Part shown: positions 9,101 to 64,000 of the stretch, in pieces
How positions within the stretch are numbered: the stretch's first letter is position 1
How the letters are laid out: each line of letters begins with the position of its first letter
Source of the DNA: Takakia lepidozioides
Lineage: Eukaryota > Plantae > Bryophyta
Length of the DNA: 64,000 nt
Assembly (NCBI GenBank): GCA_030704615.1
Contig: CM060731.1
Location: 27,528,001-27,592,000 of the forward strand
Direction of reading: 5' to 3'
Program-made: the position numbers and the translations under genes
Notes under the pieces: generated by a model
Database searches by the model: none
What the model saw: the letters and a program-made list of their open reading frames with translations, nothing else
Told to the model about the DNA's origin: nothing

Positions 9101-9342
9101 TCATAAGTTGGATCACAATCAAGGAGAATATACTTGGAGGAAACCAGATTTCAATCCATTAATATGAAAGACGGATCAAGGTGGGAACCAAAGCAAACAA
9201 AGAGATCAAATGAAGAAGTTGCGTTATACATTGAGTCTATTTTGGTATCAAAATAACTAGACTGCCAATAGTACCCCTGGAGCAAATGGAGTTAGATGTG
9301 AGAGAGTGATTGGAAAGGCCTAGTGTTCGTGAACCATTGTTT

Positions 9343-13500: not shown

Positions 13501-14772
13501 GAAGAACTCCACAAAATTCAGACATTTGTTCTCTCATCCTAAGCTGTATTTAGCCGGACAACCAGAAGGTGGCCCATCAACAGAAGGTACCATTGATGAT
13601 TTGCAATTTTGAATTTATGTAATTTGTTTGCATATGTGGTTGGTATAGATATGTAACGCTTCTAAAATTCAAGGGCCTTACTTTTTGATTGAGGTCCTTG
13701 CATTTTAGAAGGGTTCAATCCTTGGCCTCCAACTGGTTGTAGGGCATTCATAGGTTCAACTCCCGCCAAGGATACAATGTTCTTTACTTGTTTGGATAGC
13801 TTAAAATTGGTTGTGACTATTTTTTGTTGTGCATTTGACACTTGTGTTGTATTTGTATGAAACCGATTTTATTTTTTATTTTATAGGAAATGAACCGGTT
13901 GATTTGGACATGTAGAATCATAGTTAGGATAGGTTCTTTTCTTTTGAGGTACTTGGGAAGAGTGGGGGGGGGGGGTATGATCATGCTTAAGCCGATTTGG
14001 GTCAATTCTGGACGACTAGGGTAGCGGCTGCTCCAGGACGTCGTAGCGAGCACCTTTTTTAGATATGTGGTTCAATCAATCCTTCTATGCTTAAGGTGCA
14101 TAGTGCTAGATTAAGGTTGTTCTTTGGGGATTGTGTCATTTGCTTGGGCTTGCCGGTGAGTGCAACTGAGTTTGTAGATGACATCTGACGGTCTTTTCTA
14201 CAAAAATTCTATCTCTTGCTATGTAAACTGTTTAAACTATTTATATTTATATAGGAGCCGAGCCATCGGCTATTTAATGGAAAGCTCAACATACCACTTA
14301 TGGAGAGAGTCCCATCAAGCAGTAAAAGTAAAGGCTCCACATGGGTCGACGACCCGGTGACCTTCCAATTCCAACCCCTATAACTTATCTACACTAGAAA
14401 TTATCGTGTAGCCAGGCGCAAGAGCCTTCCAACCTTGCCACCTGCCCAAGGCTCATTGGTTAATCATATGGCAATTTTCGGGGCCAAAATCATGACATGC
14501 TGCCCTGTTGCCCGCTGCCCGAATCTTGGCTGGCGGGTGAGGATGGGTCCCGGAGGGCAGTATCCGCTGCCCCAGAGACTATCTTGGGGTGGATACACTG
14601 CAGAATTATTGGACTGCCCATGTGAGAAGGGGGGTGAAAAAAGCTAGGGGTTTTAACACTGGTGAAGTGGAGATAAGAGCGGGTTGCAAAACCCTGGGTG
14701 GAGGGGGAAGGGGAGCAGAGCAATCCAGCTATGGTGCTCACCTCACATCTGCCTGCGGTTTGTCGCACAAGA

Positions 14773-36445: not shown

Positions 36446-36489
36446 GTTGAATTTCTGTAAGTTACTGGTTGAATGAACCTTTGATAGTT

Positions 36490-38030: not shown

Positions 38031-38397
38031 TTCTATTGTAGTGAATATTTTTCTGACCCCAGTCAACGGTGGGACAATCAAGGCAAAAAGGTGAATGCCT
38101 GTTGGATTACAGAGAGTAGAAGATGCAATTGAGCATAGGAACTAGTGTGATAAGTTGAGTTGGGTGTTTCCTAGAACAATTCGAGGCTTTCATTGTCAGC
38201 TGCTAGCAACAAGGCAAGGGTGAATGCATGATTTTGGCAGAGGCATGGATAGCTGAAGGAGCAGGGATAGAGTGTGGGTCCAGATTCATCGAAGAGGGCC
38301 GGACTTCAAGCTCCTATGATTCCCTGTGGATCAATAGCCACTAGCAACCTGCATGAATAGATGGTCAACTGGAAGCTGCAGCAGTAGCGGTGGAATT

Positions 38398-38916: not shown

Positions 38917-39599
38917 ACCTCATCTTACAAAAGTATATCGAGTTCTTGTAGATATTAGATATTCGTTATTCGAATAATTTTGAGACCGCATGATGTATGG
39001 AATGGCGAGACGAGCCTTCTCTGAATAAATGTTTTTTCTTCTTATGAGTGAAATCTTTTTCTCCTCCTGAATTGAATTCTTTTATCTGTCAGCTATGAGC
39101 GTGTGAAGTGGTGAACCTCCACTGGACAGTGGAGGTTACTGTCCTAGGAGTTTTGTATGGTTGTTATGATATGTGTCTGACGACAGAGGTGGTTTGTTCT
39201 GTGGACAGCAACATCACCCCCAGGGATTGTATTGTTGGAATGTGCAAACCTATCTGTGGTTCATTTATTTCTCGAAAATCTCCGAATTTCAAGAATGATC
39301 GCCTGGCAATTTTTGAGCTCAACCCGGAGATCACAGAATGGGGCATTGTACCCGTTGGAACACCTCCGGACCATAAATTCCGGTTCCACTACAAGATTGG
39401 TACAGAGATCGCCGAGCTCAAGTATGCATATGTGGTCGACGTAGAGCTGGAGATGGAGGTGGAATTTCCGATGCTAGTAATGTTCATGATGGAAGATGGT
39501 AGATTTCCCAGAACGTTTGGCTTCAAACTGGAGGTACGAATTCTAAGGAAGGCCATGATGAGAGAGTCCATTCGGGCGGGGTTCACATATTGCAACGAG

Positions 39600-42524
39600 G
39601 GTACTCAATTTACAGATGAAGGTTTTGATGAGAAGGAACTGCACAAGGAAGTGACAGATATCATAAGGGAAATGCAGAAGAGTACTGATATTCCTATGGC
39701 AGATTCCTCTGATTCTGAAAGAGAAGAGGAAGTGAGTGAGGATGAAGGGAAGAAAGAAGTTGCAGAAATGCAAGGTAATGAAGGGACTTTGGCTGAAGTA
39801 ATATGCCAGTCCAAAGCGAAGATTACCATTGGACAGCTATTGGCTGTGGCACCTTATTGTAGACACAGGCTGTATCAAGCAATCAATCGAATTGCCCATG
39901 TGACAGGGAACACAGACCTGAACAGCAAGGTGACCAATTATAATGTGAAGCCAGAAGGGCGAGAAACAGTCATGGACTTTGCTGATTCTATGCCAGTAAT
40001 CCAATTGAGAATTGGAAGCACAGAACTAACTGATGTACTGATAGATGGAGGCTCTGGAGTGAATATCATGACAGACCAATTAAGGCAGAAGCTTGGTCTA
40101 AGAAACATGAAACCAGCCCCATTTATAGTAGCAATGGCAGATCAAAGAAGTGTACAGCCATTGGGATTGATAAGAGGAGTTAAGATACAGATTCAAAAGA
40201 TGATATTTATGATCACAGTAACTGTGTTGAAAATAGATGAAGTCATGGAAGCTTACTCCTTATTGTTGAATTGACCGTGGCTGAAACAGGCCAGGGTATT
40301 CCATGACTGGAATTCCCAGTTACTAACTGTGCATGATGGGATGCACAAGATACAAATCACCACTAAGAAATCTAGTAGACTACCTGCTACGAGAAGACCT
40401 CGAGGGGTCAGGGAGTATGACTGGAGGGGAGGACTTGATGAGGAGTAGGAAGCTACCATGTTCACTGCACACCCAAAGTAGGAGCAGGTTGCAGAGATAC
40501 AACTGGAAGGCCTAAGTTGTTTAAAAGGTATCTGTTGTGGTGTAGTGACAGCAACACCAATTGAGGGTGAAACAAGCAGTTACCCACCACATTTCTATGA
40601 AGAAATAGAGGGAGAAATGGAAATCCTAGAAGAACCAGCCACTGTGAGTTTACAGGATGAAGTGGTGACTGGTTGGACAATCACAGCTGATGAGCAGGTG
40701 AGAGAAGTGAATGTGGGAACTGAAGGGGAACCGAGGATGGTGAAGGTAGGGGCTGATTTGGAGCCAGAATTCTTTGAGGAAGCTAAGAGTCTGTTCATCA
40801 AATACAGAGATGTATTTGCTTGGAGCTACGAGGATCTGAAAGGGATACCACCTGAGATCTGTCAGCATAAGATTGAACTGGATCCAGGGTCAGTACCAAT
40901 CAAACATGCAAGGTACAGAATGAATCCCAACTATGCACAGAAGGTTGGAGAAGAGATCAAGAAGTTGGTTGAGGCTAAGTTTATATACCCGATACAGTAT
41001 ACAACTTGGTTGTCACCCATTGTAATAGTTCCCAAGAAGAATGGTAAACTAAGAGTTTGTGTGAACTATAAGAAGTTGAATGCTTGTACGAAGAAAGATC
41101 ATTTCCCTTTGCCATTCACAGAAGCGGTATTGGACACTGTGGCAGGCCATGAGATGTACTCATTCATGGATGGCTTCAGTGGTTATAATCAAGTGCAAGT
41201 GGGAGAAGAAGACCAGGGAAAGACAGCTTTCATCACAGACTGGGGTGCTTATGCATACAAAGTCATGCCTTTTGGACTTTGTAATGCACCAGCAACCTTT
41301 CAGAGAGTGATAAGTGAATCTTTTCATGAGTATCTGGATGATTTCATGTAGGTGTTCCTGGATGATTTCAGTGTGTACAGCTCTAAGAATGAGCATTTGC
41401 ATAAATTGGAGTTATGTTTGGCCAGATGCGGGATGAGAGGTCTGGGCCTGAATCCAGAGAAGTGTACTTTCTGTGTGAACTCAGGGGTGCTTTTGGGACA
41501 CATTGTGTGTAAGAGGGGACTTCTTGTGGATCCCAGAAAGACAGAGGCCATTAAAGCCTCTCCACCACCAGTAAATGTTAAGAGTCTAAGGAGATTCCTT
41601 GGACAAACCAGTTATTACAGAAGATTTGTCAGACGGTATGCACAGATAGCAGCACCATTGAGCAAGCTTCTGAAGAAAGATGCAGTGCTTGCATGGACAG
41701 CTGAATGTCAACAGGCTTTTGAGGAACTTACATTGTCAGTAACAACTACACCTGTGCTGATTAACCCTCACTGGCATGTAGTATTTCATGTTCACTGTGA
41801 TGCCTCAGGAGAAGCGTTGGGTGCAGTGGTAGCCCAAAATGTTATAGGAAATATAGATTCACCTGTGTACTATGCTAGCAGGTTGATGAACAGTGCTGAA
41901 AGGAATTATAGCACAACTGAAAGAGAAGCACTGGCAATGATTTATGCAGTCAAGAAATTCAGGCATTACCTATTGGGAAGGAAGTTTATGTTTTATGTGG
42001 ATCACCAGGCTCTGATATATCTGGTGAACAAACCTTTGATAAGTGGAAGGATAGCAAGGTGGTTAATAATCTTGCACGAGTTTGAGTTCGAAGTTGTTTA
42101 CAAGCCTGGCCGTTTGCATCTTGTGGCAGATCACTTGTCACGCCTATCAACAGGAGAGCCCGCCACAGGAGTAGAATTCTTGTTACCTACCATGAGAACT
42201 GAATGGGGAAGGAGAATGGAATTAGAATATTCAATTAAGGTCAGGAAACATGAATTATACCATGTGAAAGAAGTACGTGCTGATGCAGCTGATAACATGA
42301 CCAGAATTCAGATGAAGATGAAGGATCGAGGTAAATTAAAGACTTTTAAGACGGGAGATTTGGTACTGTGGTTGCAGAAGAAGGGGAAGAATAAAGCTTT
42401 TAAGTTTAAATCACCATGGAAAGGACCTTATGTCATACAGAAGATGTATGATAATAACACCGTCATGTTACAGACCATTAACAAAGAAATGCTGGGAAGA
42501 GTCAATGCCAATAAGTTGAAGTGA
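39600..42524 (+). pseudogene. gag-pol remnant: protease, RT, RNase H and the integrase C-terminus only
   Basis: A single frame has in-frame stops at 40272, 40446, 40479, 41349 and 42522. Motifs: VLIDGGSGVNIM (PR); FMDGFSGYNQV, VMPFGLCNAPATFQR and FLDDF (RT); HCDAS, NYSTTEREALA and YVDHQAL (RH); FKTGDLVL..WKGPY (IN C-terminus). Confidence 0.9.
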
Positions 42525-42677
42525 TACAGTGGTATCCATGACAAACCATTGCAGCACGATTTGCATGTTGAAACACAAAAACAGTCACGGGCTACGCCAG
42601 TGATACCAACGGAGTATAGAGCACTTGTCGCTAAGCCGAGCATGTATGACCAGGGCGGGAAGTACAGGTGTTCGCAT

Positions 42678-42910
42678 AGCTATCACAGTCCATCACAGCG
42701 TGACTCGGCCTATCACAGCCCATCACAGCGTGACACAGCTTATCACAGCCCATATTAGTGCCACACAGCCTATCACAACCCATCACAGCGTGACACAGCT
42801 TATCACAGCCTATCACAGCGTGACACAGCTTATCACAGCCCATCACAGTGTCACACAACCTATCACAGTTCACCACAGTTAGACACAGCCTGTCGCAGCC
42901 CAACACAGCC
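42678..42910 (+). repeat. 10-bp-period array (C(C/T)ATCACAGC / GTGACACAGC) after pol
   Basis: Tandem catcacagcg, tgacacagct and tatcacagcc units, about 23 copies. Confidence 0.9.
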
Positions 42911-43245
42911 CATGCGGGTTACACAGTCCATTGGGTCAGTGACAGGTGGACGCGGGTTAACGTCAGAAAAGTGGCTGTCAAGTGAAGAAGAGGTTTGGAA
43001 GTCAAACTCGGAGAATATGCCACGCGGAGAAGGGGGCATGTCTAAAAACGGACACGTGGCCACTAAGGCGAAGCACACCGCAGTGCATAGATTGCAAGAG
43101 TGGGTCTCATCATGTAAGAGGACAAATCGGGCCGTCAAAGTACCTACCCGGTACATCAGCTAAAACTATTTGTGGGCCCATTAATGCATTCAGGGCAGGG
43201 GTAACATAACCCTTTCCGAGTATAGAAAAAAAGGACTTATGCCAC

Positions 43246-46200
43246 ATGTGCTGTCCTACTGGACATTCCAGGTGGGAATGTCCACGGAGGGGGGTGGAAT
43301 TAAGAAGTTACCTAAGCAGGCAACAGCCAATTAGGAGTGAGAATTTCATGCAGGTGGTTCCCTCCAAGAAACAAGAACAAGAAATTGGAAGTGTTATGAG
43401 TAGAAGAGTCGGGGTGGCTCCGAATAGGCAGTGTCTCGACGGGAGGGGCAATCAAAGCACTAGCTTTGTAGCTATGGCGGACGTAACGGATTACACGCTC
43501 GCTTTACTTCTCACGCAGTGGCGCAAGGACAGACGAATTGAGAGTACATTTTCTCTCACTCGATACTTGCAAGCCCCACAGGCTTACACGCACTTACCTG
43601 TTCCATTTTGTGCCAACCATACATTTATGCTCTGTGCCCTGCAAGCTTTCCTTCAGCTGTTTCAAACAAGGCCTTTTTGTTTGTCTAGAATGAAGAGAAT
43701 GAGGGGAATGGAGGATATCAGGGTGAAGAGCACCACGATTCTGCAGAAGCAAACAATTGCTAAACCGCAGGCAGTGCAGCTGCTGAGGGAGTTGCGATTG
43801 GAGGGGCTGCTACGCAAGGACTGGTCCTTGCATCATCGGCAGTATATGATTCAATTTCTTCAGAACTTTGAGCCTCGGACGGGAGTTACCCATGTGAGGG
43901 GAGTAGATATAGAAATTACTCCCCAGTACTTGCAGCAATTGTTTGATTTGCCATCGGGTCATGTGGATGTGGATGAGCACAGGGCAAGATTGCAGATAGG
44001 GAATTTGTTCCAAGAAGGGAGTTTCTTTAAGACTCAAGGTTACGCTTGTACCAAAGCCAAGTACCCACGGCTCAGAGAAGTTGGCCAAATATTGAACGTT
44101 CTGTTTGCCATGAAACAGAACCAACAATATTTGAGCAGGTCATTCACAGAGGAGATCCTGAAAGCTTTGAGGGGAGAGGATGTAGCTTGGGCAGAGTTAA
44201 CGTACAATGGTCTGGTGGAAGAGATGAAGAGGTTACAGGGCACTACTGCTAAGTCTCCGATCATTGTGTTTGGTCCAGTCATTGCCCAAATCATTCTTGA
44301 CTCTTGCATACTTGATACTCGGGAACGTAAGGAGATGGGAGTGTTTGAGGCAGTAACCATTGCAATTGAAGAGCAAGGCTCTTCACATAGTGAGGGTGGA
44401 CTGGTAGGGCAATAGCAGTCTAAGAGACAGAAGCGGGGTATGACTGTAGTGGCGGATCCACTGGTTTCACGGAAACCGCAAGATGATGTTTCCCAAGCTC
44501 TTGTGCACGATGGGGCACAGCAACACAGAGGGCTGTTATTATTGGAAGCACGGCCTTTGGAGAGGGAAGAAGAAGTCACTTTGGTACCACAGCCATCACA
44601 ACTAGTTGCCTAAGTTGTCTCAGAGGTTCCACAGTTAGAACATGCTGTGATACCACCCCCAATTGCTCTGGACGGAGAAAGGTTGGACATTCCCACTACA
44701 GAGCAGGTCGTGGCAGAAATTGAGAAGGGTGACCTTCTCTATGAAAACTCTGGCTTGGTAAGGGAATCAGTGGTTCCAGAGGTGCAGAGTTTGTCCAGGG
44801 AAATCCCTGCTGTGCATGTAATACCCACACCTGTGATGGAGGTATCAGGGGTAGCATCTAAGGACACTGCAACACCTGTGGAGGATGAGGTGGTTTAGGA
44901 AGAGGATCTGGTGGGGCAATGGCCTGAATGGTTGGTGAAGCATCACATTGTGGAAGATCAGGGGGAACAGCAGCAAATTCACCATGATGACCCCCAGTAG
45001 GCCATGCTTATGAGTTCCATCAGCAGGACACTCAATTTGTTGGGCACTTATGTGAAATCTCATGTTCCATCTACCCAATTGGCAGCTTTGAAGGAGGAAC
45101 TCAGGAAGGAGTTTGAGACTCGAATTGCCACTGAGTGTGCTAACAAGGTAGATGAGGAGGTCAATCTCAAGTTACAGCAAGAGTTGGAGGACACAAAGGT
45201 TGCCTTGCAGTTGGCTAAGGGACATTTGATTGAAGCAGGTCTCGAGCACGACCAGTTGCATGAAACACATAAGCAACAGTTATACCAATTACAGGTGAAG
45301 CATGAGGGCAAGTTGCAAGACATGAACGTACTACATACAGAGTTGGAGGCAGTACATTAGAGGATGACCATACAATGTGCTACACTCACAATTGCTCTAG
45401 AGCAAACTGCATTAGAAGTTAACAGACAAGGGGAGAGATGTATGATGGCAGAAGCTGAGATAATAGAGCAAGGGAAACTCATTGTTGATTTGCAGGCTAC
45501 AATCTGTCGCAATGAGAATACTTTCCAACAGTACAAACAGGTTGAGGCTGACCAGGAGAGGTACATCCTGGAGTTGCAACAAACAGTCATAGTTAATAGA
45601 AATGAACTCTCTGTGGCTAACAAGGCTTGGAAGGAAGCCAATAATCTGGCTGCTGTCTATGCGGGCCTGGTTGAACCTCATGCAAAGCGCATGGAAGCTT
45701 TACAGCAGCAGTTAGATGTGTACAGACTCACGGAGGAGCAGACTCTCAGGGGTGCCACACAGGACTTGGTGGATAACCACCTTATGCAGATCTGGTTAGC
45801 ACAAGGGCCGGTAGAAGGCAAAGCACCAAGGAAGCTCACCCAGGGCGAGATGAATGAGCTCAGATTGCAGGTGCAGAACATTGTCACAATTACAATAGAC
45901 AATGTCTATAGTAGGATAGCGGAGCTACAGGAGGATGTGGAAGGCCTGCAGATTCAAGTGGATGACCTGAGTTCAAATATTGACAAGAGAGTCTTTGTTC
46001 CTGAGGAGCAGCTGATGGCTACTTATTTACATGCCAGGACTCTAATTCTTCAGTCTTCTTCGCAGGGGGTGCAGGAGCTGCCAGTGGTAGAAAGGCCAAT
46101 GGTACCAATACCACAGCAGGTGCCTGTGCAGGTAGTTGACCCTGTTGCTACTACAGCCAAACCACAGCCAGAGGTATGGGGGGATGCTGCTTTTAACCCA

Positions 46201-47247
46201 TCTAGGACTCCTGCTGCACGAGAGTACAGTCGGGCTATGATTATGCCCTTCAACCAAATTCCCATTGTACTGGATTTGGCTTGGAAGGAATTTAGTCCTC
46301 CACAGTCGTTGGCACATTACTACCAGATCATGCGCATTTGGTTGCCGGTGGCCACTCGGACTAAGGTTCTTCCGAACAATCGACCCATTGAGGATCATCA
46401 CTTTGCCAGGTACTGGTCTGAGGCAGGTACTATGCTGAAGGAATTAATTGTCTTCCAGGTTGTACATGGGTACATCTATACCAAGACCAAGGAGGTATCT
46501 AGTATTGTCATGGGCTGTGGATTATACTATGCTGCTTGTTTTATGGCACGTTATCATATTGAGCAGCAGAAGATGCAATCACGATTTCTGAGTTATTCCA
46601 GTGGGGATCATTGGGTCTTACCTTCAGTGCCACCTCATATGCACCTATATGATGCAAAAGTTATGATGCAGAAGGATTCCCAACTTCGTTCATGGTTTAA
46701 TTCGGCTTGGAACAATTTGGCAACACAGAAATTCGGCCCTGAGGATATTTTCTTTAAGGGACATGAAGCCTGGAAATACTTACACTGTTCCAAAGTTATT
46801 GGCACACCTCTCACCTATACGGCTAAGGAGTTCAGGGCGTTCACTAATTTTGCTTGCAAGCGCTTACAACAAGTTGTACAGTTTAAACTTCCAGACATGG
46901 TGGGCCTACATTGTATGCCACGTAGGATTCCCGAGAAGCCACTTAAAGTTCGGCCGTTAAAACACCTAAGGGGGGACGATGATTCTGATACTACTGTTTC
47001 TTCAGAGGACTCTTTTGACATGGCAGAGGACTATGCACTTCAGATGGCAGAGAAGAAACGACGGGGATCTCCTATGCCTGAGAGGTTACCTCGTTATCAG
47101 CCAAATGAGGGTCAGACATTTCCAAGTAGTGCTCAATCATCTCCATCAGCCAGTGACAGGACTCAAGCTCGCACACGGAGTCCTTCCCGAGACTCTCATC
47201 GACAGAAGGGTGCTCGCTCACAAAGGTTTGCTGATCCCAAACAGTAA
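43246..47247 (+). pseudogene. Large additional ORF of the Gypsy element (~1200-1300 aa if repaired): plant-transposon ORF1-like N-terminus, coiled coil and an unknown C-terminal domain
   Basis: ORFs 43246, 44647, 45004 and 45364 are all in the same frame, separated only by point stops at 44413, 44611, 44896, 44998 and 45358. It contains the QFLQNF...HVRGVDIEITPQYLQQLFDLP motif and a long heptad-rich Glu/Gln/Leu segment at 45050-45990. Confidence 0.7.
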
Positions 47248-47285
47248 ACCGTGAGGACACGGCTTTTTAAGAGGGGGAGGGGTAA

Positions 47286-48166
47286 TGTTAGAGGGCTGCT
47301 TGGGACTTAGACGCTTTTACGGGTTCTGTGGGGTACCCTTAATTTTTGCGCAAACTGAGACCAACAGGAGCCTTAGGAGTGGCAGAAGCAGATTTTAGGG
47401 GGTTACACAGCCCATCACAGTCTATCACAGCCTGAAACAGCTTTACACAACCCGACACAACTTCGCACAGCCAGTCACAGCTCGACACAACTTCACACAG
47501 CCCGACACAGCTTCGCACAGCCAGTCACAGCCCGACACAGCTTGACACAACCTGTCACAGTACATGGGGAACAGTTATCATTGACAGGGAACGACTGTGT
47601 GGGAACGACATCTGCAGAGGGGACGTGTTACTTCAGGGGTGACGGTTAGTTAGTTAGGTGGTTAAAACAGCTTGCGGGTAGATTAGGCAGAGCGGCAACA
47701 GGAAGGGGATCACTTCTTGAGGAGGGCGACTTGTTCAGGAGAGGAAGAGACGTAACGGAGAGCGGAAACAGTGAAGAGGAGATAATGACTTGAATGAGGC
47801 TTAGTTCATGCAAGCTGTAAAATTATACAGTAGGGTAGAATAGAGACACCATGGCATAGGCATGATACATGATTAATCTTAATCCGATACTGAATCGATA
47901 CAAACATACTGTGTAGAGAGACACGAGAGAAGCTGTGGAATGAATGCATGATTAATTGGAACTTAGTAGATACTGAAGCAATCTGATGCTTTAGTATACA
48001 CGGTAAGGTAAATTAAGGAAGGAATACAAATAAGAAGCACAACCATGATTCAGTAGCTGCAAGTCATGACTGATTGTTCTGAGCAGACTGAGTGCTTAGA
48101 GATATCCAACTCTTCTATCTTGGAGTTTCCAGATAGCGAAGGGATGGGTGAGTAAAAGCCGCTCGA
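47286..48166 (+). repeat. 3' LTR of the first Gypsy element; right end uncertain, probably cut by the next insertion
   Basis: It starts with TG immediately after the PPT and contains a 10-bp cacagc array at 47404-47560. Confidence 0.65.
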
Positions 48167-50079: not shown

Positions 50080-50660
50080 ATGTAGGATGCGAGGGAGTCT
50101 AGAGGTTGACTGAACTCTAGTACGATGTACATGTATACCAAATGTGAGAGCATCTTGGATACAAAGGTAGTGTTTGACCATATGGCGTGCCAAACAAGTG
50201 GTGGTGTCTTGGAGTGGTGTGATTGCAGAATATGCACAACATGGGTGTGGATGGAGGCTTGATATACCAATGAGCAAATGAGGCGGGAAGGGGTGAACCT
50301 AGACCAAGTGCTGTTCGTTTGTGTTTATAATGCTTGTGTGAGCCTTGTAGCCCTGGAAATGGGTAAAGTGGTCCATGTTGACATTGTCAAAGCTGGAATT
50401 CATGTACTTGAATGGGCGGGAAGGGGTGAAGCTAGACTAGGTCATATTTTTGGTGTTTGTAATGTGTGTGTGAGCCTGGCAGCCCAAGAATGGGCACAGA
50501 TATTGTGGTCCATGGTGGAATAATGAAAGCTGCAACTGTACCAGATATCATTCTGAACAATATTACCCTCCTAGACATGTATACTAAAATGCAGGACCAT
50601 CGAGGATGCAAGGGCGTGTTTGACAATATGGTTGAATGAGTTGTACTGGTCTCCTTGAGT
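50080..50660 (+). pseudogene. Highly decayed PLS-class PPR fragment
   Basis: EQMRREGVNLDQVLFVCVYNACVSLVALEMGKVVHVDIVKAGI and PDIILNN..LLDMYTK, paralogous to 36490-38030. Confidence 0.75.
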
Positions 50661-50868: not shown

Positions 50869-52470
50869 GCTGTGAGGGGCTGTGACAGGCCGTGCCCATG
50901 GCCTTTGGGGCTGTGACGGGCTGTGTCAGGCTGTGGCGAGCTGTGACGGGCTGTGACGGGATGTGATGGGCTGTGGCAAGCTGTGACAGGCTGTGATGGG
51001 CTGTGATGGGCTGTGACAGGCTGTGCCCTGTGCCCTGTGGGGCTGTGACGGGCTGTGTCAGGCTGTGGCGAGCTGTGACGGGCTGTGATGGGATGTGACA
51101 GGCTGTGCCCAGTGGCCTGTGGGGTTGTGACGGGCTGTGATGGGCTGTGGCAAGCTGTGACAGGCTGTGCCCTGTGCCCTGTGGAGCTGTGACGGGCTGT
51201 GATGGGCTGTGACAGGCTGTGCCCTCTGGCCTGTGGGGCTGTGACGGGCTGTGACAGGCTGTGGCAAGCTGTGACAGGCTGTGATGGGCTATGATGGGCT
51301 GTGACAGGCTGTGCCCTGTGCCCTGTGGGGCTGTGACGGGCTGTGTCAGGCTGTGACAGGCTGTGCCCAGTGGCCTTTGGGGCTGTGACAGGCTGTGCCC
51401 TGAGGCCTGTGGGGCTGTGATAGGCTGTGCCCAGTGGCCTTTGGGGCTGTGACGGGCTGTGCGGGGCTGTGACAGGCTGTGCCCTGAGGCCTGTGGGGCT
51501 GTGACAGGCTGTGGCGAGCTGTGACAGGCCGTGCCTGAGGCCTTTGGGGCTGTGACGGGCTGTGAGGGGCTGTGACAGGCCGTGCCTGAGGCCTTTGAGG
51601 CTGTGATGGGCTGTGAGGGGCTGTGACAGGCCGTGCCTGAGGCCTTTGAGGCTGTGACGGGCTGTGAGGGGCTGTGACAGGCCGTGCCCATGGCCTTTGG
51701 GGCTGTGACGGGCTGTGAGGGGCTGTGACAGGCCGTGCCTGAGGCCTTTGAGGCTGTGACGGGCTGTGAGGGGCTGTGACAGGCCGTGCCCATGGCCTTT
51801 GGGGCTGTGACGGGCTGTGAGGGGCTGTGACAGGCCGTGCCTGGGGCCTTTGGGGCTGTGACGGGCTGTGAGGGGCTGTGACAGGCCGTGCCTGAGGCCT
51901 TTGAGGCTGTGAGGGGCTGTGACAGGCTGTGCCTGAGGCCTTTGAGGCTGTGACGGGCTGTGATGGGCTGTGGCAAGCTGTGACAGGCTGTGACAGGCTG
52001 TGACTGTGCCCTGTGAGGCTGTGACGGGCTGTGAGGAGCTGTGACAGGCCGTGCCCATGGCCTTTGGGGCTGTGACGGGCTGTGAGGGGCTGTGACAGGC
52101 CGTGCCCATGGCCTTTGGGGCTGTGACGGGCTGTGAGGGGCTGTGACAGGCCGTGCCTGAGGCCTTTGAGGCTGTGAGGGGCTGTGAGGGGCTGTGACAG
52201 GCCGTGCCTGAGGCCTTTGAGGCTGTGAGGGGCTGTGAGGGGCTGTGAGGGGCTGTGACAGGCCGTGCCCATGGCCTTTGGGGCTGTGAGGGGCTGTGAG
52301 GGGCTGTGACAGACCGTGCCTGAGGCCTTTGAGGCTGTGATAGGCTGTGAGGGGCTGCGACAGGCTGTGCCCAGTGGCCTGTGGGACTGTGACGGCTGTG
52401 ACCAGTGAGCTGTGTGGGCCTGTGCTGGTCTGTGGTGGCCCGTGTTGACCTGTGGACGGCCTGTGCTGAC
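50869..52470. repeat. Tandem array, 10-bp unit GCTGTGA(C/T/G)(A/G)G with a 51-bp higher-order repeat
   Basis: For example ggctgtgacg ggctgtgagg ggctgtgaca ggccgtgcct gaggcctttg a repeats every 51 bp around 51550-52200. It is the reverse complement of the arrays at 42678 and 47404. Confidence 0.95.
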
Positions 52471-53226
52471 TCGTGGAGGCACTGGTGGACTGCCTAAGGA
52501 CTGGCATGTGGTCTGGAAGGCCGAATTTTGAAGCTCGTGGAGGGCGGTTTGAGGAGTATCTTCATGATATTCCCATGGTCATGCAAGTGAGGGTAGAGAG
52601 GAGAGGCAGAGTGTTGGGATGAGACCATGCTGGGGTTAGGCATTGCTTTAGCTTCTCTTCCTCGTAGTTTCCACCCTCTCATTAGGCCAAGACCTTTCCG
52701 TAGGTGGAGGCAAGAGTCAGTCCGGGTTTGGGCTGGGGTGTCCTTGCAGGAGCAACACCGTGGAGTTGTTTTTGGTGTGGGGGAGTTGTCGATCTGATTT
52801 CTTGTGTTTGGATCCCCTCCATACCTGCATGCTTGACTGTGCGCCATGGTAGTTTTGTGTGGGCGCTTGTTTTTATAGGTGATTGGTCCGGATTTGATCA
52901 CCGGCCAGTCCTAGAGCATGTTGTCGATGGTGAGGCTGGGGTGATGACCAGCCAGAGCATCATTGTTTTTCCTGTGGTGAGGTTGGAGGTGATGACCAGC
53001 CAACCATAGGAGTGCTTGCGGTGGATGCAGGTACAGGTGTAGGCTATGTTAGGAACTTAGTATTCCAAACCATAAGCCGCAACAGGTTCTCTACCCGGTT
53101 ACCTTGTGAAGAGGGGGTTAGGGACATGTTCATGACCGGTTGAGTGTCAACACGGAGGTGCCACTAGTTGCTGGGGACAGTGCCGGTTTGAGCACTAGCG
53201 ATACTAGTGGGTACACGAGACGAGGT

Positions 53227-55833
53227 ATGCGGTTTAGGCCACCTTCACCTCCTGTGTCTTCTACGGAAGGTTCTGATTCGGATTGTGAATCGGGAGGACT
53301 CATACCGGCGGTGCAAGTTGTTTCTTTGCCATTGTTGTGGGACACAATGGAGGAGATGTATGGAGCTACCAAGGGGCCACGAAGATACTCTGGGGCGGTG
53401 GGCACCATCGAGTTGGATGATTTTATCCAAGAGTTTGATAGTTGGTGTGATTTGCAGCAAATGCGCAATCCACAACTATTTACGCCTTTCATGGCATGGA
53501 AGGGGCTGTTTCAGCACCTTGAGGGGCCGCCTATGGATGATTACCATGAGTTCAGGCGGGGGCATGAGGTTGAGATCGAGGAGTGGAGGATGTAGTGGTC
53601 ACCCGACTATGTCTCCATCACTAGGGGCACTAGAGCCACGAGGGCAGTGGCTACACCTGCCGCTGCACCGGCAGCTTCAGCAAGCAGCAGTGGGACTGGT
53701 GGTACAGTAGCTACGACGTCCACCCAAACCACTACCGCACCAGCACTAGCACCCGTGCCTGCCTTCAACCCTGTTGTGGAGTTCTTCGAAGAGTTGAGAG
53801 GGAACTACCAAGGGGTGAGGACAGAGAAGTTGCGGAACTTGCAAGAGTTCCAACGGAAGCCGACCGAGAGCTTGAGGGAGGCTTTCACTCGCATGAGGCG
53901 CTTGATAAATGTAACCCAAGGGGTTACGGAAGCTCAGGCAGTCCAATTCTGGTATGGGATATTGGACAAGGAGCTGAGGAGAAGGGTGTGGGATGCAACT
54001 CTCCTACAAGCGGCCCAACCCACCTTAGCAAATGTGTTTTTGCTGGCAGAGCGGATAGAGCTCAACATGGTGGAGGAACGAGTGGTCATGGTGGGATTTG
54101 CTAAGGAGACACCACGGGGTAGTAGTGCTCCTAGCCAACCACTACCTCCACGTGCTCAAGGCAACAAGGGGGCTCAGGTGAAGCTCAGGGAAGGGCAGAG
54201 AGGACCTCAGATGCAGGGGTCTCTCCCTTCATTTGCTGGCCAACAACGGGCGGATGTGGTGTGCTGGACATGTGGAGGACCCCATGTCAAGAAGGATTGT
54301 CCAGAGGGAGGCAAAGGGCCGGCACATGCACAGCCTGCACAGTTATTGTGTGGGCATTGTGGCAAACACGGGCATGGAGAGGCTCAGTGTTATGGTTTGC
54401 ATCCTGAGTTGCGCCCAGGCCAGTTCCAAGGGAACAATGGTGGCCGGGGGCGAGGTGGAGCAGCCCAGAGGGGACGAGGTGGCCAGCCACAAGGCCAAAG
54501 GCAAGCTCAACGTGGCCAAGGACGCGGAGGTCAGGGTGTTGACCAAGGCATGGCCAACCGGCTTCAGCAGCTAGAGCAGAGGCTCGCTGCCATGGCTACC
54601 GCTCAGGTGGTACCGGCTCTAAGGCCGGATGGTCCACCTCCTGCTCCTGAGGGAGGAGATATGGGAGGCATGGGATTCATGTGTGGAGCAGCACTACCAC
54701 TAGTGCAGGTGGAGTCTGCTGCAGCCGTGACTCGAGGAGCAGCACGAGTTCCTGAGCCACGAGGTGCAGAGGTGGAGTTGGATCCACAGTGTGGGGAGGC
54801 AAGCCGTCAGGCTAGGCTTCCTCAGTCATTCACATTGGCGGAGACAGTGTCGACGCCATCCATGGCACCTAGTTCTCGCCCGACTGTTACCGAGGCGGAG
54901 CTTACTATGCCATTGGGGAGAGCTACACGGGTAGCACCACTACCTAGTGTTGCCAAGGCTACGGCAACTAGTGTGCTGCTAGGAGCGGCCACATCTGTGT
55001 GCCAGGCTCCATTGTTCTCGGCTACCATGATTGCGACGCCGGGGATAAGACCAGCTGAGGTGTTCAGGCTGGCAGCTACACTCTGTGAGAGTGGGGAGGT
55101 TACTTCATCTTCTGCGGAGATAGTGGGAGGTGTAGTGCCGGAGGGATCCTCGGATTTGAGGGTCAAGACTGCCACGGCGGCGCCATGGCAAGCTGCAGCT
55201 GCCAGGTTGATGGAGCTGCCAGCTAGGCCAGCCATTGAGCGCGCCATGGTGACACCTGGAGTTGTCATGTTAGACAACCAGGATGGCATTTTCTGTTTGA
55301 GTGGACCGGCAGGCAAGAGGTACCGGCCACTGCGAGTCTTGTTGGACTCGGGAGCTCAGCCACTGATGCTGGGCAGAGCTGCTATTGCAGGCTTGGGCCT
55401 CACGGAGGCGGATATGGAGCCTTGTCCTTTCCAGATACAGACGTCTCTGGGAGGATCGGAGCAGGCTCGGGGCATGACACGGCATGAGTTGGCTATCAGA
55501 CTACGGCCGGATCACCCTACAGATGGCTCAGTGATGCGAGCTAAGGCCATTGTGACAGACGCAGTCTCATACGATGTCCTGGTTGGTGGGGCAGTGTTGT
55601 ACCCCATGGGCTTCACCCTGGATTTTTGGGAGGAGTCAGCTTCCTATAGGCCTGCATGGCAGTCAGGGGAGGGCCGGCGTGTGCAGCTCTTTGTGACGTT
55701 CATAGGAGGAGTTACGGTTGCCCAGCGAGGCAAGATGCCGACACTAGCAGCATTCACAGCGGCAGTGAGTTGGCCTAGAGAATTGCTTGAGGGCAATGCT
55801 CATTCAGAGGATGTACCACCTCCGGGAGAGTAG
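53227..55833 (+). pseudogene. Gag, two zinc knuckles and aspartic protease of the DNMT-Gypsy polyprotein
   Basis: Motifs: FQRKPTESLREAFTRMRRL (gag), CWTCGGPHVKKDC, CGHCGKHGHGEAQC and VLLDSGAQPLML...YDVLVG (PR). There is one in-frame TAG at 53593, and the frame is the same as the DNMT segment. Confidence 0.85.
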
Positions 55834-55839
55834 GATGAC

Positions 55840-57306
55840 ATGTATGGTATGGCGGAGTTGCCTACCATGGTTGCTCAGACTCCATTGTGGGGCACGAGCA
55901 AGGATTTGCAGCGGGATGCTGATCGACGAGTGCAACAAGCCTGGGTGGAGGCTTTTGTACCGTCAGGAGAGGAGGAGAGTGTGGGGATTGCACCAGGACC
56001 ACCTCAATTGTCTCCATTGGACACCACACCTATTGTGTGGCAGTATCCGGATGAAGGCATTTGTCTTCTGGACTTGTTTGGCGGGATCAGCACCGGATTG
56101 GCTGCTGTGTTACAAGCAGGTGTACGAGTTCGGCGTTACCTGTATGTGGAGAGGGATGAGACTGCACAACGCGTTTCACTTCGCCATGTTGCTCAGTTGG
56201 TGCAGCGGTACCCTGAGTTGTTGTCGGTGTCTGCAATTCGTGGATATCAGCAGGCCTTGCCAGCAGACATTTCGTTGCTGGGGGCGCAGGATTTGGAGCG
56301 GGTTGGCTCCATTGATCTGGTAGTGGCAGGTTGGCCCTGCCAAGGGCATTCATCAGCCGGGCATGGCAATGGATTGCGAGACTCGAGGTCGGGTCTGTTT
56401 TGGGAGATGGTGCGGGTTTTGCGCCACTTGCAGCTTCATCAAGCTGTATCTCCAGCATACATCTTGGAGAATGTGCCACTGATGGGCGATTCTCGGGCCA
56501 GGGTGATGGCCAGTGTGCATCAAGTCCGGTCGTGGCTTGGGTCAGCAGTATTGCTAGATGCAGCTACAGTGGGGTCACGAGCTCATCGTCCACGGCTATG
56601 GTGGACTAACTTGATGCCACCCGCACTGCTCAAGCGTGCATTTGATGGGGTGCAGCGGCCAGCACATCTCACAGTGGATAACATTCTGGACACAGGGAGG
56701 CAGTCTCAGCGTGTGAGACACGATGACCGTTCGCCTTTGGCAGTGGTCAACAAGGTGGGTCAACCACGGGCAGCATTACCTACACTGCTCACCTTCCCAG
56801 GATCGCATGCTTTTCGGGATAGTGGACCTGGCCTCCTGTGGGATGCTCAGTTGCAGCAGTTAGTGGAGCCTAATGCTGACGAGCGTGAGCGGGCAATGGG
56901 TTTTACCACTAGTACCACGGCGGTGTCGTCTCTTTCTGAGGCATCACGTCGTCAAGTGTTGGGGCAAGCAATGGATCTCAATTGCTTGACCTGGATTATC
57001 AGCTTGGCTCTGGCTGAGCAACGCAGAGTGCGGAGTACACTTCCCTCAATGGTCTCTCTGCCTACCGAGATGGTTCAAGCAGTGAGTGGGGGCGAGCATG
57101 TGAGGACCACGGGGTGCATGCATCCATGGCACACGTGGGAGGTGCTCGAGGTTCAGAGGGAGTTGGCAGCCAAGGCGGCTCTTATAGAAGAGGTTGGGGA
57201 TTCTTCTCGGGTTGAGGAGGTCCTCAAGGATGAGATGATGGGGCAGGATGAGGCCTTGTCATTGACTGAGCAGGCATGGAGTACTGCTCAAGAGGTTGCG
57301 GCATAG
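55840..57306 (+). CDS. DNMT3-like C5 cytosine DNA methyltransferase domain (~56060-56990) within the retrotransposon polyprotein
   Basis: Motifs in canonical order: I LDLFGGISTG, II YVERD, IV VAGWPCQGHS (catalytic Cys at 56338), V SGLF, VI ILENV, VIII HRPRLWWTN, IX ERERAMGF and X RRQVLGQAM. There is no stop inside the domain. Confidence 0.92.
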   Translation: MYGMAELPTMVAQTPLWGTSKDLQRDADRRVQQAWVEAFVPSGEEESVGIAPGPPQLSPLDTTPIVWQYPDEGICLLDLFGGISTGLAAVLQAGVRVRRYLYVERDETAQRVSLRHVAQLVQRYPELLSVSAIRGYQQALPADISLLGAQDLERVGSIDLVVAGWPCQGHSSAGHGNGLRDSRSGLFWEMVRVLRHLQLHQAVSPAYILENVPLMGDSRARVMASVHQVRSWLGSAVLLDAATVGSRAHRPRLWWTNLMPPALLKRAFDGVQRPAHLTVDNILDTGRQSQRVRHDDRSPLAVVNKVGQPRAALPTLLTFPGSHAFRDSGPGLLWDAQLQQLVEPNADERERAMGFTTSTTAVSSLSEASRRQVLGQAMDLNCLTWIISLALAEQRRVRSTLPSMVSLPTEMVQAVSGGEHVRTTGCMHPWHTWEVLEVQRELAAKAALIEEVGDSSRVEEVLKDEMMGQDEALSLTEQAWSTAQEVAA

Positions 57307-57611
57307 CAACCACGGGATGTGTCCTCTACCTCTAAGTCTGCTGGACTTAAGGTTGCAGTTACGAAGGGCAATTGGGAGCCTGACATTGGACCTATTGTCA
57401 CTAGAGGAGAGAGACGACGTATACAGCGGTTCCTGAGGCTTACAGGAATTGCTTTGCCTCTCGTGCTACGGTGGATGAGTATGAGAGACATGTTCAGGTT
57501 GTGCATCGACTGGGTTTGGTCAATAGGGATGCGGATGGATTGAGTCGCAATCCATGCACGAGCCAGTAGGATGACACTGGAGCTCGGTGGCATGGTGAGA
57601 CGGACGAGGAG

Positions 57612-59192
57612 ATGGTGCCGGGATGGCACGCATCTGCATTTTTGTGTATCTTGGCATCAGGAGGTCAGATTGGACCTACAACAGGGATGACTGTAGACGG
57701 AGTGTCTGAGGACCCTGAGGCTAGTGATGAGCTAGGTGGTGCCAGAGATATACATGAGGATTCGGCTGTGTTGGACTACCTCCGCACGGGAGACACGGCA
57801 GCCATTGTGACTGCCAGGGAGAGGGATCGGATCCTGCAACGAGCCAAGAGGTTCAAGTGGGAGGGGATACACCTACTTCAAGTGTGGGAGGATGGTCGGG
57901 TGAGGATTGTGCCTCACCCCACACAACGTGCACGGTTAGTGCGGCATGCCCATGAGGAGTTGGGGCATTTTGGAGTGCGACGCACTCACAGTTTACTGCA
58001 GGGGCAGTATTGGTGGCGTGGTATGCATACAGAGGTGCAACAGTTCATGGCTAGGTGCATGGTGTGTGACAGGGTGCGTGCTTCATTCAACGCCCCTACA
58101 CCACAGTTGCATCCTTTACCAATCATGGGATTGGGCTACAGGTGGAGTCTTGACTTCGCAGGACCGTTGACACTGACTATGCGCCACCACATATATGTGT
58201 TGGTGATGGTGGAGCACTTCTCCAAGTGGATTGAGTTGGTTCCATTGCCTGACAAGGCTAGTGAGGGGGCTGCGTATGCATTCTTGGATCGTGTGCTTAG
58301 CCAATTTGGTGCTCCAGCTGAGGTACTCACGGACCAAGGGAGAGAGTTCTTGGGGGAGTTTCAGGCTTTGTGTGATAAAGCCTTGATAGACCACCGCACC
58401 ACTTCTCGGGATCATCTTGAGGCCGATGGCTTAGCAGAGAGCGTTGTTCAGACGGTGAAGAGGGGTTTGCGCAAGTATGGCTTGCAGAAGGGACACCTAG
58501 GAGATTGGGATCTTCAGGTTCCTTGGTTAGCCATGGGCTACAAGTTCAGCAAACAAGCATCACTTGCCTCCTTCTCACCATATTTCCTTCTCTTTGGCCG
58601 AGAGCCGGATTTGCCTGCAGCCATTCGTAGGGACACTGCTCAAGTCCTTAACCTTGGCGACCCGGACGTGTGGGTACGTGCATGTGATTAGCGTGCAGAG
58701 TTGTTCAAGAAAGTCATGCCCATGGCTTTTGAGAACCTTGCCATTGCACAGCACCGTGATACGTTGAGGTATGCCACTATACGTGGTGGAGGATATCGTC
58801 CTGGGGTTCGGAGGTTTAGCCCTGGTGACTATGTTTATTTGCAGCAGACCGCTCCTACGACTCTGGATGTTACTGCAGGGCGTGTTATTCTGAGGGTTCG
58901 AGAGGTGTTGCCCTCAGGGGTCCTGATCTTGGAGGGTCGGGATGGCATGACTTGGAAGGACCATGTGCGTAATTGTGCGCCATGTCACCTTCCCAATGTC
59001 GATGGCAGAGTTGACCCAAACTTGGCAGTAGTACCTGCAGGTTTGAGGTGCATGCTCTGTGGGTCTGCCAAAGGGGCAGCCACCATGCTGGTGTGTGATC
59101 GATGCTCAAGGGGTTGGCATATGGGATGCTTGATACCACCTCTTGAGAAGGTTCCTGACGGAGATTGGTTGTGTCCACACTGCTTGGGATAG
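57612..59192 (+). pseudogene. Integrase (H2C2, DDE core, SH3-like region) with a C-terminal PHD finger
   Basis: Motifs: HEELGHFG...CMVC, WSLDFAGP, VLTDQGREF, DGLAES, FSPYFLLFGREP, FSPGDYVYL and the PHD CMLC..MLVCDRCSRGWHMGC..VPDGDWLCPHC (C4HC3, 59049-59183). There is one in-frame TAG at 58689. Confidence 0.92.
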
Positions 59193-59452
59193 TGGCAGTG
59201 GACATGACTGGAGGCAGCTAACAAGACATGGGAGGCCAAGCTCATAGGAGTCAATACATGAGATCCCAAGCTCAAGTTCACAGGTTGCAAGACGGCGACT
59301 AACGATGGGGCAACTCTTGCACCCGGCCTCTTGATCTATCGAGTTTGAGTGTAGTAGGGATAGTGGTGGAGGACTTAGTGAGACTATGGTCACTATCACA
59401 TCTTGTGGCTACCTGGACTTAGAGGGACCTAAGCACCAGCTAGGGGGGCGAT

Positions 59453-60126
59453 TGTGTGGACTAGTGACTGCCATAGTGGGCAGCATAGTGGCAGCCTAGT
59501 GACTGACTAGTTGTAGTCTAGTGGTTGGACTAGTGGTGGACTAGTGGTATACTAGTGTGTGGTGTGCACATGTGTTGTGTGGTTTTTGGACAACGATGTA
59601 GTTGTGTAGCGATATGTATGCGCACGACAGCTGTCAAGTTATTTTACCACTAGTGTGAAACTAGCTAGGAAATAGCTAGCTTTCACATATTGACATTTGG
59701 GATTGGCCCAAGTGTCAATCCAGGGGTCAAGGCAGATTTAGGCCCTGGAGTGGTTATCTTCACGGCAAGCGCGGAAGGCTCATCTTTCTCGAGTTGAGCC
59801 TCACCGCGCCTAGCTATGGCGCCGTAGTGTGGATTCCCCATGGCGTGGGGTGCACTTGGCTTGACTTGTATTTGAGTGATGAGGTTATATATGCATGAGT
59901 TTATGCTTCAGAAAGATGAGCTCGTGCTTGTATTCTTCTTCTTTATCATTGTGTGGACTAGTGACTGCCATAGTGGGCAGCATAGTGGCAGCCTAGTGAC
60001 TGACTAGTTGTAGCCTAGTGGTTGGACTAGTGGTGGACTAGTGGTATACTAGTGTGTGGTGTGCACATGTGTTGTGTGGTTTTTGGACAGCGATGTAGTT
60101 GTGTAGCGATATGTATGCGCACGACA
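59453..60126 (+). repeat. 3' LTR region with a 177-bp direct repeat at both ends (A-B-A)
   Basis: 59453-59629 and 59950-60126 differ at only 2 positions, and both run TGTGTGG...CGACA. Confidence 0.85.
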
Positions 60127-61178: not shown

Positions 61179-61916
61179 TCAAATTCTCCATAAACAACAA
61201 ACAGTGGGATAAGTACATACCAAGGTAATCAGGTTTCTTTTGTTGTGGGATCCAAACACAAAGATCAACATATCTTCCATACCAAGCCCAATAGGCATGG
61301 TGCGACCAATAGGCTTACGAGAACACTTGGCAGGGTTCTCGCTGATGTAATCTACGACTGTTGAAGCTGCAACCATTTTCAATATATATGGCCACACAAC
61401 TTTTGTCATATCATCCTGGTCAACCAAACCCTTTGGTGATGGCTTGTATGAAATATGGAAGAATCCAGTATTTGGTGGGTTTCGGAGGCCTTTTGATGGC
61501 TCATCATTGACAATGAGTATTTGTCCCTGCGTTGCAAAGGGTGTACCAAGGTACTTGGCAAGAACAGTGCGAATATCCTTAACGAGATATTTCATCCCAG
61601 GCATGATGTAACCGGTAGTGTCTTTGCAATCTTCAGCTGACCAGATGAAGCAAAACTTCTTCGCAATTTTCGTAGGAACTAAGCACTCGAGCATCCTACA
61701 AAGAACATCTCTTTCAGCACATGACCAAATCGTCACGTGAAAATGCACGAACCCAAGGTTGAGAAACTCCAAGACTCAAGGCCGGGGAACCACAAAAGGT
61801 CTGTCGGGAACATGAATTGTAACTTTCCTGAAACGAAATCTCTCCTTAAACAATTCACCGTCGGTTGGAGGTGGCCGGTAGCAGAGGAGTCCATTGACAC
61901 TCAATATTAACAACAT
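61179..61916 (-). pseudogene. FCP1-homology (NIF/HAD, CTD-phosphatase-like) domain, copy 1; probable transposon cargo
   Basis: The frame reads MLLILSVNGLLCY...PRP*VLEFLNLGFVHFHVTIWSCA...FIWSAEDC...KDIRTV...ILIVNDEPSKGLRNPPNT. It has one in-frame TGA (~61777), and the motif I Asp is replaced by Ser. Confidence 0.7.
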
Positions 61917-63522: not shown

Positions 63523-64000
63523 TTATTTTGAAGCATCATATCTGAGACTCTTAAAACCGTTGTCCTCAATAAAATCCCAGAGTGGCATAAACTTGGGATC
63601 GTTTGAAACATTGGGAAAAAAACTCAACCCTATCTTTTTTTTCCTAAGATAGCTTGAAACAGTGGGATGTTTCCTCATTCTAAGCAAATAGGTCTGAAGA
63701 ACCTTGAGAAGATAGCAACCATCAGTCTCCACGGTCTGGAACGGTTTGAGAACAAGACATGAGTCGGGCGGGTTCAATACACACTTCATGGCGGTGTCGT
63801 CAATGAGCAGAGTGTTACTCTTGGTGTATTGTCAACCAAATCTCTGCTAGACCTTGACCAGTGGCTTCAAAAACAAATGAGGAGGGTCCAATCTTGATTT
63901 GAATTGAGGGTGAACCGAAGTGAGACATGAAATACAATCCTCTTGAGACATAACTAAGGCCGGTTGAGGTAGACCACGAAGCAAAAAATCCATGATGGGC
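63523..64000 (-). pseudogene. FCP1-homology domain, copy 2 (C-terminal half; continues beyond the window)
   Basis: The frame reads FLKPLVKV*QRFG*QYTKSNTLLIDDTAMKCVLNPPDSCLVLKPF...LLKVLQTYLLRM, matching the NIF-family NTLLIDD..K...NP motif. Confidence 0.65.

Follow-up and report, generated by a model that had tools for sequence, protein, structure and literature searches.

A predicted DNMT3-like DNA methyltransferase carried by a high-copy Ty3/Gypsy retrotransposon family of land plants

The principal result of this analysis concerns a retrotransposon in a 64,000-nucleotide stretch of Takakia lepidozioides DNA (contig CM060731.1, positions 27,528,001 to 27,592,000; the whole stretch is hereafter called the window, and coordinates count from its first letter on the forward strand unless stated otherwise). 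The element is very probably a copy of a high-copy Ty3/Gypsy family that encodes its own DNMT3-like DNA methyltransferase (DNMT). Judged from its sequence, the family represents the KnitGypsy-Dnmt3 kind, known from Klebsormidium nitens, in a land-plant variant with a conserved and likely leaky stop codon, split repeats and an integrase that ends in a PHD finger. The family plan is Gag, protease (PR) and DNMT, a stop, and then reverse transcriptase (RT), RNase H (RH), integrase (IN) and PHD. The best explanation overall, to which we assign a probability of roughly 55%, is that pol is made by readthrough of that stop and that the DNMT is packaged and methylates new complementary DNA (cDNA) in the particle. 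The window copy itself is dead: it has lost RT and most of RNase H to a deletion, lacks the 5' repeat and carries four private stops. A preliminary description of this DNA had inferred a self-contained chromatin reader/writer element, a title that this copy, with its RT deleted, does not deserve.

The methyltransferase domain (56050..57030) is a DNMT3-like C5 cytosine methyltransferase, intronless and uninterrupted in the window copy, which matches Pfam DNA_methylase with an E-value of 5.6e-13. Its motifs run in linear, unpermuted order, I, IV (GWPCQG, 56329), VI (ENV, 56467), VIII (HRPRLWW, 56584), IX and X, as in the DNMT3 family and unlike the permuted DRM enzymes, and the catalytic Cys, Glu and two Arg are conserved at 94-99% across 110 aligned domains. 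The best solved relative in the sequence search was DNMT3A (E 7.6e-12), with DRM at 1e-5 or weaker and HhaI at 4e-4. An alignment-based structure model (pLDDT 77) resembled DNMT3A and DNMT3B most (Z 22.9 and 22.8, root-mean-square deviation 2.9 and 3.0 over 252 and 258 residues; Foldseek E 3e-17), the next structures being M.MpeI (Z 19.9) and HhaI (Z 19.5); as modelled, the fold is DNMT3-like. The complete, unpermuted DNMT3-like enzyme of the preliminary description is thus borne out by its intact motifs and by DNMT3A/B as best solved relatives, and the Pfam searches that it had proposed for DNA_methylase, rve and PHD all found matches in the window element. No Pfam match to DUF3444 was found beside the DNMT in the window.

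The metagenome loci used for comparison are the best 80 of 261 confirmed matches; they come from few metagenomes and include near-duplicates, therefore locus counts overstate independence, which weighs against our explanation. A further retroelement domain lies beside the DNMT in 75 of the 80, the other five contigs being shorter than 2.4 kb. In loci with enough flank, protease occurs upstream of the DNMT in 33/35 and Gag in 29/35, and where at least 4.5 kb lie downstream, RT and RNase H follow in 21/21 and integrase and PHD in 19/21. The order PR-RT-RH-IN by which Ty3/Gypsy elements are defined is accordingly found in the family loci, among them L050, RT having been deleted in the window copy. 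The tyrosine recombinase that DIRS elements carry in place of a DDE integrase was not found; the family has an rve integrase and target duplications instead.

The family is high-copy. Summed contig depth in the public run X1 was 0.67-1.23 million over 52507-60021 vs 3,000-19,000 in the outer flanks, a measure that serves only to establish high copy and gives no copy number, and the very small run X6 covered the element and hardly its flanks. Relatives were found in Marchantia polymorpha (~55-77% identity, with a cluster of 18 near-identical proteins, 16 of them named), M. paleacea, Riccia sorocarpa, Calypogeia fissa and three Sphagnum species, as well as in the algae K. nitens (45%, E 8e-53) and Closterium (38%) and the chlorophyte Hariotina (41%). 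The matches listed (46 in one search; 120 of 225 in another) include no named vascular plant.

The first open reading frame (ORF1, 53227..57306) encodes Gag, protease and DNMT and carries the private stops 53593 and 55831. The Gag capsid region with two CCHC zinc knuckles, the latter read from the translation, occupies 53362..54400; its match to Pfam Retrotrans_gag (E 0.0042) lies under the curated cut-off, and its identity is ~45-68% to most related loci and 25-26% to L050 and L059. The aspartic protease (LLDSG, 55237..55686) was recognized by locus comparison and by a match to Pfam Asp_protease_2 (E 0.033) that is likewise under the curated cut-off. In-frame TAG codons within or ending ORF1 stand at 53593, 55831 and 57304, so that the single frame at 53227-57306 broken by lone TAGs, as described earlier, is real; the TAG at 57304 is a family feature and not decay. 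Related loci have a sense codon at the stops 53593, 55831, 57567 and 58689 in 35/35, 59/61, 36/38 and 27/32 cases, respectively, and the last three are absent from same-family contigs in public runs; all four are private decay of the window copy. A frame change near 57436, together with the stops 57567 and 58689, disrupts the integrase half. Comparison with contigs and loci located a deletion scar at 57459..57493, where 33 letters in the window stand against 1281 in a contig of run X13; RT is absent, and of RNase H only the last ~26 codons remain.

Between the private stops 57567 and 58689 lies the integrase (57570..58688), with an H2C2 motif (Pfam Integrase_H2C2, 2.8e-15) and a catalytic core (rve, 1.6e-13). 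The pol frame ends in a C4HC3 PHD finger (59037..59192; Pfam E 3.4e-11), whose best solved matches are the PHD fingers of CHD4, KDM5B, KDM5A, PHF12 and ATXR5. The chromodomain typical of chromoviruses had no Pfam match in the window or in L050, and the earlier statement that the integrase ends in a C4HC3 PHD and not in a chromodomain therefore stands. PHD fingers of the CHD4/KDM5 type read histone H3 unmethylated at K4, and from our reading of the alignment we take the window PHD to lack the cage tryptophan of K4me3 readers. REM1 of Chlamydomonas is reportedly a PHD-bearing Gypsy element. PHD fingers are already known in Gypsy and other retroelements (PMC9940879, PMC6673714), so the pairing of PHD and Gypsy to which the preliminary description had drawn attention is not new.

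Between the two halves stands TAG-CAA-CCA (57304..57312), which fits UAG-CARYYA, described as the type I plant readthrough motif (PMC5382211). Of the 80 loci, 53 span the stretch from the DNMT end to the RT start, and in 47 of these the corresponding place is taken by an in-frame stop (43 at 132 nucleotides (nt) before the RT anchor, 3 at 153 and 1 at 138; the next commonest position has 8). These 47 comprise 36 TAG and 11 TAA, and 46 are then followed by CAR, which is why the TAG at 57304 is not regarded as decay. In L050 a single TAG-CAG-TTA separates two intact ORFs in the same frame, the first (1369 amino acids, aa) with protease and DNMT and the second (1047 aa) with RT, RNase H, integrase and PHD; L086 is built alike, with TAG-CAA-TCA at the place of the conserved stop, and nine Marchantia proteins terminate 72-74 aa past the DNMT. 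Stop suppression has been reported in the retroelement SIRE1 (PMC2829016). The nucleotide context and the preserved frame suggest that the stop is probably a site of programmed readthrough from ORF1 into pol. Whether pol comes by readthrough or otherwise, the DNMT lies on the Gag side of the stop, and since the DNMT and the PHD-integrase flank it on opposite sides, the two are likely made at different levels.

The element extends past 59192 to 60126 and has split repeats at its 3' end, the 5' repeat being missing. A polypurine-tract-like G run (59442..59450), found at a similar place in most PHD-bearing loci, stands directly 5' of repeat B1 (59451..59629; 179 nt, CA end, 99% identical to B2). 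Repeat A2 (59632..59947) starts with TG, and contigs of runs X11 and X13 begin segment A at 59632 behind dissimilar flanks. Repeat B2 (59948..60126), again with a CA end, forms the 3' end of the element, as indicated by repeat comparison and contig depth: at 60126 depth falls and a contig of run X7 departs from the window. No 5' copy of repeat A (A1) or B was found in the window. Among loci counted as testable, where a match sufficed despite short flanks, so that the ratios are favoured, A occurs at both ends in 6/11, B twice at the 3' end in 7/16 and both repeats in 4/8. The divergent subgroup L073 and L077-L080 (41-43% DNMT identity) has split repeats and PHD as in the rest of the family. 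TG-like...CA ends with a 4-bp target duplication, as expected of Ty3/Gypsy elements, were seen in three of four complete relatives (L046, L064 and L077; not seen in L080), the window copy having its 3' end only. Instead of two equal long terminal repeats (LTRs), one per end, the layout is A...B-A-B, and the element is therefore Gypsy by its proteins yet not a canonical LTR element. Visual inspection of five loci revealed no evident primer-binding site behind A1, no comparison with tRNAs having been made, and no tRNA gene was found in the window. The junction of B1 and A2 is palindromic (GACA-GC-TGTC, 59626..59635), and its CA-NN-TG form recurs in L006, L015, L045, L046, L050, L059, L064 and L080. 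Integrase removes two bases from retroviral ends; we infer that the junction may store these two bases, and the A...B-A-B layout would result if a circle were cut there.

Upstream of ORF1 lies a tandem array (50869..52401) of a 10-nt unit, GGGCTGTGAC, arranged in 51-nt higher-order repeats. In runs X1, X5 and X6 the array and the element have depths of the same order, and contigs from three public runs connect a shorter array of the 10-nt unit to 52380; the array is likely part of the element's 5' region.

Between lineages, the DNMT is under purifying selection. The ratio of non-synonymous to synonymous substitutions (dN/dS), after exclusion of pairs with dS < 0.03, < 100 shared codons or saturation (625 DNMT pairs), was 0.12 for the DNMT of the window against the loci (43 pairs; 37 of 80 saturated) and 0.08 for the integrase; distant locus pairs gave 0.23-0.24 for the DNMT. 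For 32 elements the tree of the DNMT agrees with that of the integrase (Mantel rho 0.88, 0/999 shuffles as high), 11 supported splits (of 15 and 14) being shared and 2 conflicting; as kin share history, this agreement indicates long residence of the domain and not its function.

Under the explanation that we favour, capsid, protease and methyltransferase would all be made from ORF1, abundantly and in equal measure, and readthrough of the stop would add small amounts of RT and integrase. The protease would free the DNMT inside the particle, where it would methylate freshly made cDNA, and the new copy would arrive pre-marked like host DNA; judging by the Symbiodinium DIRS enzymes assayed in yeast, CG is the likeliest target sequence. 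The PHD, by binding H3 tails that carry no methyl group at K4, would anchor the integrase there and steer insertion away from active promoters. The new cDNA may be the main DNMT substrate, for which we would lay even odds, and the chances that the PHD targets integration seem to us equally balanced.

Several findings, besides the limited independence of the loci, weigh against this explanation. The strict UAG-CARYYA motif is present in 5/47 locus stops and in L086; 39/47 read CAA-CCC, as do most Sphagnum-like copies, and most of these have ATG next, which permits re-initiation. The subgroup L073 and L077-L080 has no stop between DNMT and RT, and the stability of RNA structure 3' of the stop was not above that of shuffles (z -0.99). 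The bryophyte PHD is without the acidic stretch of KDM5 PHD1 and of the algal relatives, so that H3 binding is not assured. The CpG observed/expected ratio of the element (0.52) is not below that of the window's first 30 kb (0.48), and that of the neighbouring DNMT-less Gypsy is 0.28; CpG not being depleted, the element bears no compositional trace of self-methylation. Among close decayed copies dN/dS was 0.62 for the DNMT, 0.70 for protease, 0.45 for RT and 0.48 for integrase, so that the DNMT is less constrained than RT and integrase, with post-insertion decay inflating all three. Finally, the domain of KnitGypsy-Dnmt3 produced no de novo methylation in yeast, a result that its authors call inconclusive (PMC5890265).

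Part of this evidence could be read in other ways. The conserved stop might be a true stop, with pol arising through re-initiation, from a spliced transcript or from an RNA of its own, which would still leave the DNMT on the abundant Gag side; the CAA-CCC context with its ATG and the 11 TAA codons agree with such a stop, but we think it unlikely, since the window, L005, L050, L052 and L059 have no Met after the stop, pol is exactly in frame, and CAR after the stop is kept across lineages with otherwise differing linkers. It is also conceivable that chromatin is what the DNMT methylates, be it the target site or other DNA of host or transposons, either through the integration complex or as free ORF1 protein, with the PHD as reader. 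The DNMT3-like fold, the PHD on the integrase and the position of the DNMT directly before the integrase in the chlorophyte-type group all suit this proposal; nevertheless, the land-plant DNMT is split from IN-PHD by the conserved stop and RT-RH, so that they do not form one mature protein, and it has no targeting domain such as the DUF3444 of host plant DNMT3s (PMC6453930), and we consider a chromatin target improbable. We give marginally less credit to a role other than DNA methylation, be it RNA methylation, as raised in PMC5890265, or non-catalytic binding that shields cDNA or RNA: conservation of all the catalytic residues and a modelled fold nearer to DNMT3 (Z 22.9) than to DNMT2-type RNA enzymes (Z 16.9-18.6) argue against it, whereas the inactivity of the Klebsormidium domain in yeast and the lack of CpG depletion in the element speak in its favour.

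Regarding the origin of the domain, it is hardly credible that a host gene was captured recently in a single event, or that the contig is algal or a contaminant. The DNMT is intronless, multi-copy and common to four bryophyte genera, and its dN/dS of 0.12 between lineages is far from the value near 1 of a recent capture. The window also holds an intron-bearing GDP-L-galactose phosphorylase gene (exons in 95-2206, reverse strand), which is 89% identical to Sphagnum over the main exon and 85% over three exons, 82% to Ceratodon, 77% to Marchantia and 74-77% to two rows labelled as apparently algal; being closest to Sphagnum, it indicates that the host is likely a bryophyte, with weak support in the gene tree. 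The three circumstances under which the preliminary description would have given up its reading (a DNMT in one copy only, a recent capture, a foreign contig) thus do not apply. A source of the domain in a phage or bacterium instead of a host DNMT3, or two separate gains (at the PR/RT and RH/IN positions), is a more serious alternative, although we regard it as doubtful. The family profile scores DNMT3A at 74.8 bits and phage enzymes at 64-72, a near tie by which the domain is DNMT3-like and not demonstrably derived from a host DNMT3; moreover, the Atlas lists two viral clusters and one streptophyte cluster at 0.96. In the DNMT tree, made from 43 of 72 retroelement domains (near-duplicates removed) and five viral rows with no host DNMT3 rows, the elements with the DNMT before the integrase form a 98/98 clade in which 11 of 13 rows show it directly before the integrase. 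On the other side, all retroelement DNMTs reach at least 240 bits, the four phage enzymes of the outgroup sit together on one long branch (2.58, 100/100), the Klebsormidium copies were placed in the Dnmt3 family by the tree of de Mendoza 2018 (PMC5890265), and DNMT3 led the structure searches, though these phage enzymes had no solved structure among the matches. The six named land-plant rows all fall on one side of a 91/100 branch. On a shared origin with the Klebsormidium copies the evidence is divided: the profile score is 279 bits vs 64-75 for non-retroelement enzymes, but the backbone that joins land-plant and Klebsormidium rows is unsupported (84/56). Some of the proteins P0028-P0044, including P0034 of Hariotina, constitute a sister group with the DNMT between RNase H and integrase, which may be either a second gain or a domain move.

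One of 43 pattern matches on viral contigs is a relative, and a weak one (35% over 140 aa), whose row is long and under half filled and whose place in the tree is given no weight. One of 23 in prokaryote genomes is a relative, L086; it was rejected as a bacterial source, as its whole element is 74% like L050, and it is most likely eukaryote DNA in a metagenome bin. L086 and the protein P0246 are whole elements or DNMTs in assemblies labelled cyanobacteria or relatives, and, being likely eukaryote DNA in metagenome bins, are a trap for claims of bacterial origin.

The benefit of an own methyltransferase to a retrotransposon has been an open question since 2018, the known carriers being algae. 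As such elements occur in Marchantia polymorpha, a model with genetics and methylomes, the question becomes testable, and the conserved stop provides a concrete prediction on the amount and place of the enzyme. Given the shared order and repeats, a gain so far described for the Klebsormidium lineage would also take in land plants, and the chlorophyte Hariotina has a related group. In practice, such copies inflate the DNA-methyltransferase gene counts of bryophyte annotations, and search tools based on paired LTRs will miss split repeats. A broader proposition, which we think quite unlikely, is that of an old green-plant lineage of split-repeat Gypsy elements which persists in many copies in bryophytes, fills its particles with capsid-like amounts of methyltransferase by means of a leaky stop and delivers pre-methylated cDNA, and whose ends would arise from an integrase-cut circle at the palindromic CA-NN-TG junction between repeats B and A; if true, a derepressed element could add transposon-encoded de novo methylation to Marchantia and moss genomes.

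Other features of the window include a second decayed Gypsy (39099-47571) with a protease-like region, RT and RNase H (Pfam), in which no integrase or DNMT was seen. Long ORFs follow, at 43210-44415 and, without a Pfam family, at 45361-47247. Arrays of a 10-nt unit lie at 42680-42909 and 47425-47560; in reverse complement they are of the kind that stands before the DNMT element. We take 14677-15186 to be the start of a YchF/Obg-like GTPase gene, and 36487-38078 and 50249-50559 are presumably decayed PPR-like repeats. A DUF7869 ORF lies at 29966-30862, and repeated ORFs with weak NIF phosphatase matches at 61179-61775 and 63523-63831.

Among known systems, KnitGypsy-Dnmt3 of K. nitens is likewise a Gypsy element in which a DNMT3-like domain, unpermuted and free of introns, lies between protease and RT (PMC5890265), and KFL_009030040 of that alga, the relative at 45% identity (E 8e-53), has the order PR-DNMT-RT-RH-IN. 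DIRS-like repeats together with Gypsy domains (Fig. 4c legend, PMC5890265) correspond to the split repeats of the present family, and in both the DNMT is under purifying selection (PMC5890265). The present family differs in its land-plant host, its very high copy number, its conserved stop between DNMT and RT, where the Klebsormidium protein model runs through, and its PHD-ended integrase, the Klebsormidium model being partial and ending before that place. The words 'PHD' and 'Marchantia' are absent from the text and searched supplements of PMC5890265. The portions covered of PMC11982613, PMC12885004, PMC10952607 and 10.1101/2021.02.12.428880 hold no relevant mention, the main text of REXdb is without 'PHD' or 'methyltransferase' (PMC6317226), and PMC12344493 places some DNMT3s within retrotransposons of streptophytes and dinoflagellates. 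No earlier land-plant report of such an element was found in a literature search that left most subscription papers and the Marchantia genome papers outside. The novelty suggested in the preliminary description for a land-plant DNMT Gypsy is therefore upheld in that the family is real and without a prior land-plant report that we could find, but the family is closer to the Klebsormidium elements than was implied.

SymbioDIRS-Dnmt3 and SymbioLINE-Dnmt of dinoflagellates are likewise retroelements bearing a C5 methyltransferase, yet they are of tyrosine-recombinase or LINE type, represent separate gains and have no DDE integrase; the DIRS enzymes of Symbiodinium carried out de novo CG methylation in yeast (PMC5890265). 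Gypsy-7a_cRei of Chlamydomonas has a PHD finger that was proposed to guide insertion, and its published domain list is without a DNMT (PMC9940879). The DNMT3s of non-flowering-plant hosts share the linear DNMT3-type catalytic domain and carry DUF3444 (PMC6453930), whereas the domain of the element is without DUF3444 and without introns and lies inside a polyprotein. The type I readthrough of tobamoviruses likewise joins UAG and CARYYA to an in-frame downstream gene (PMC5382211); unlike in those viruses, the stop of the present family divides Gag-PR-DNMT from RT-RH-IN-PHD.

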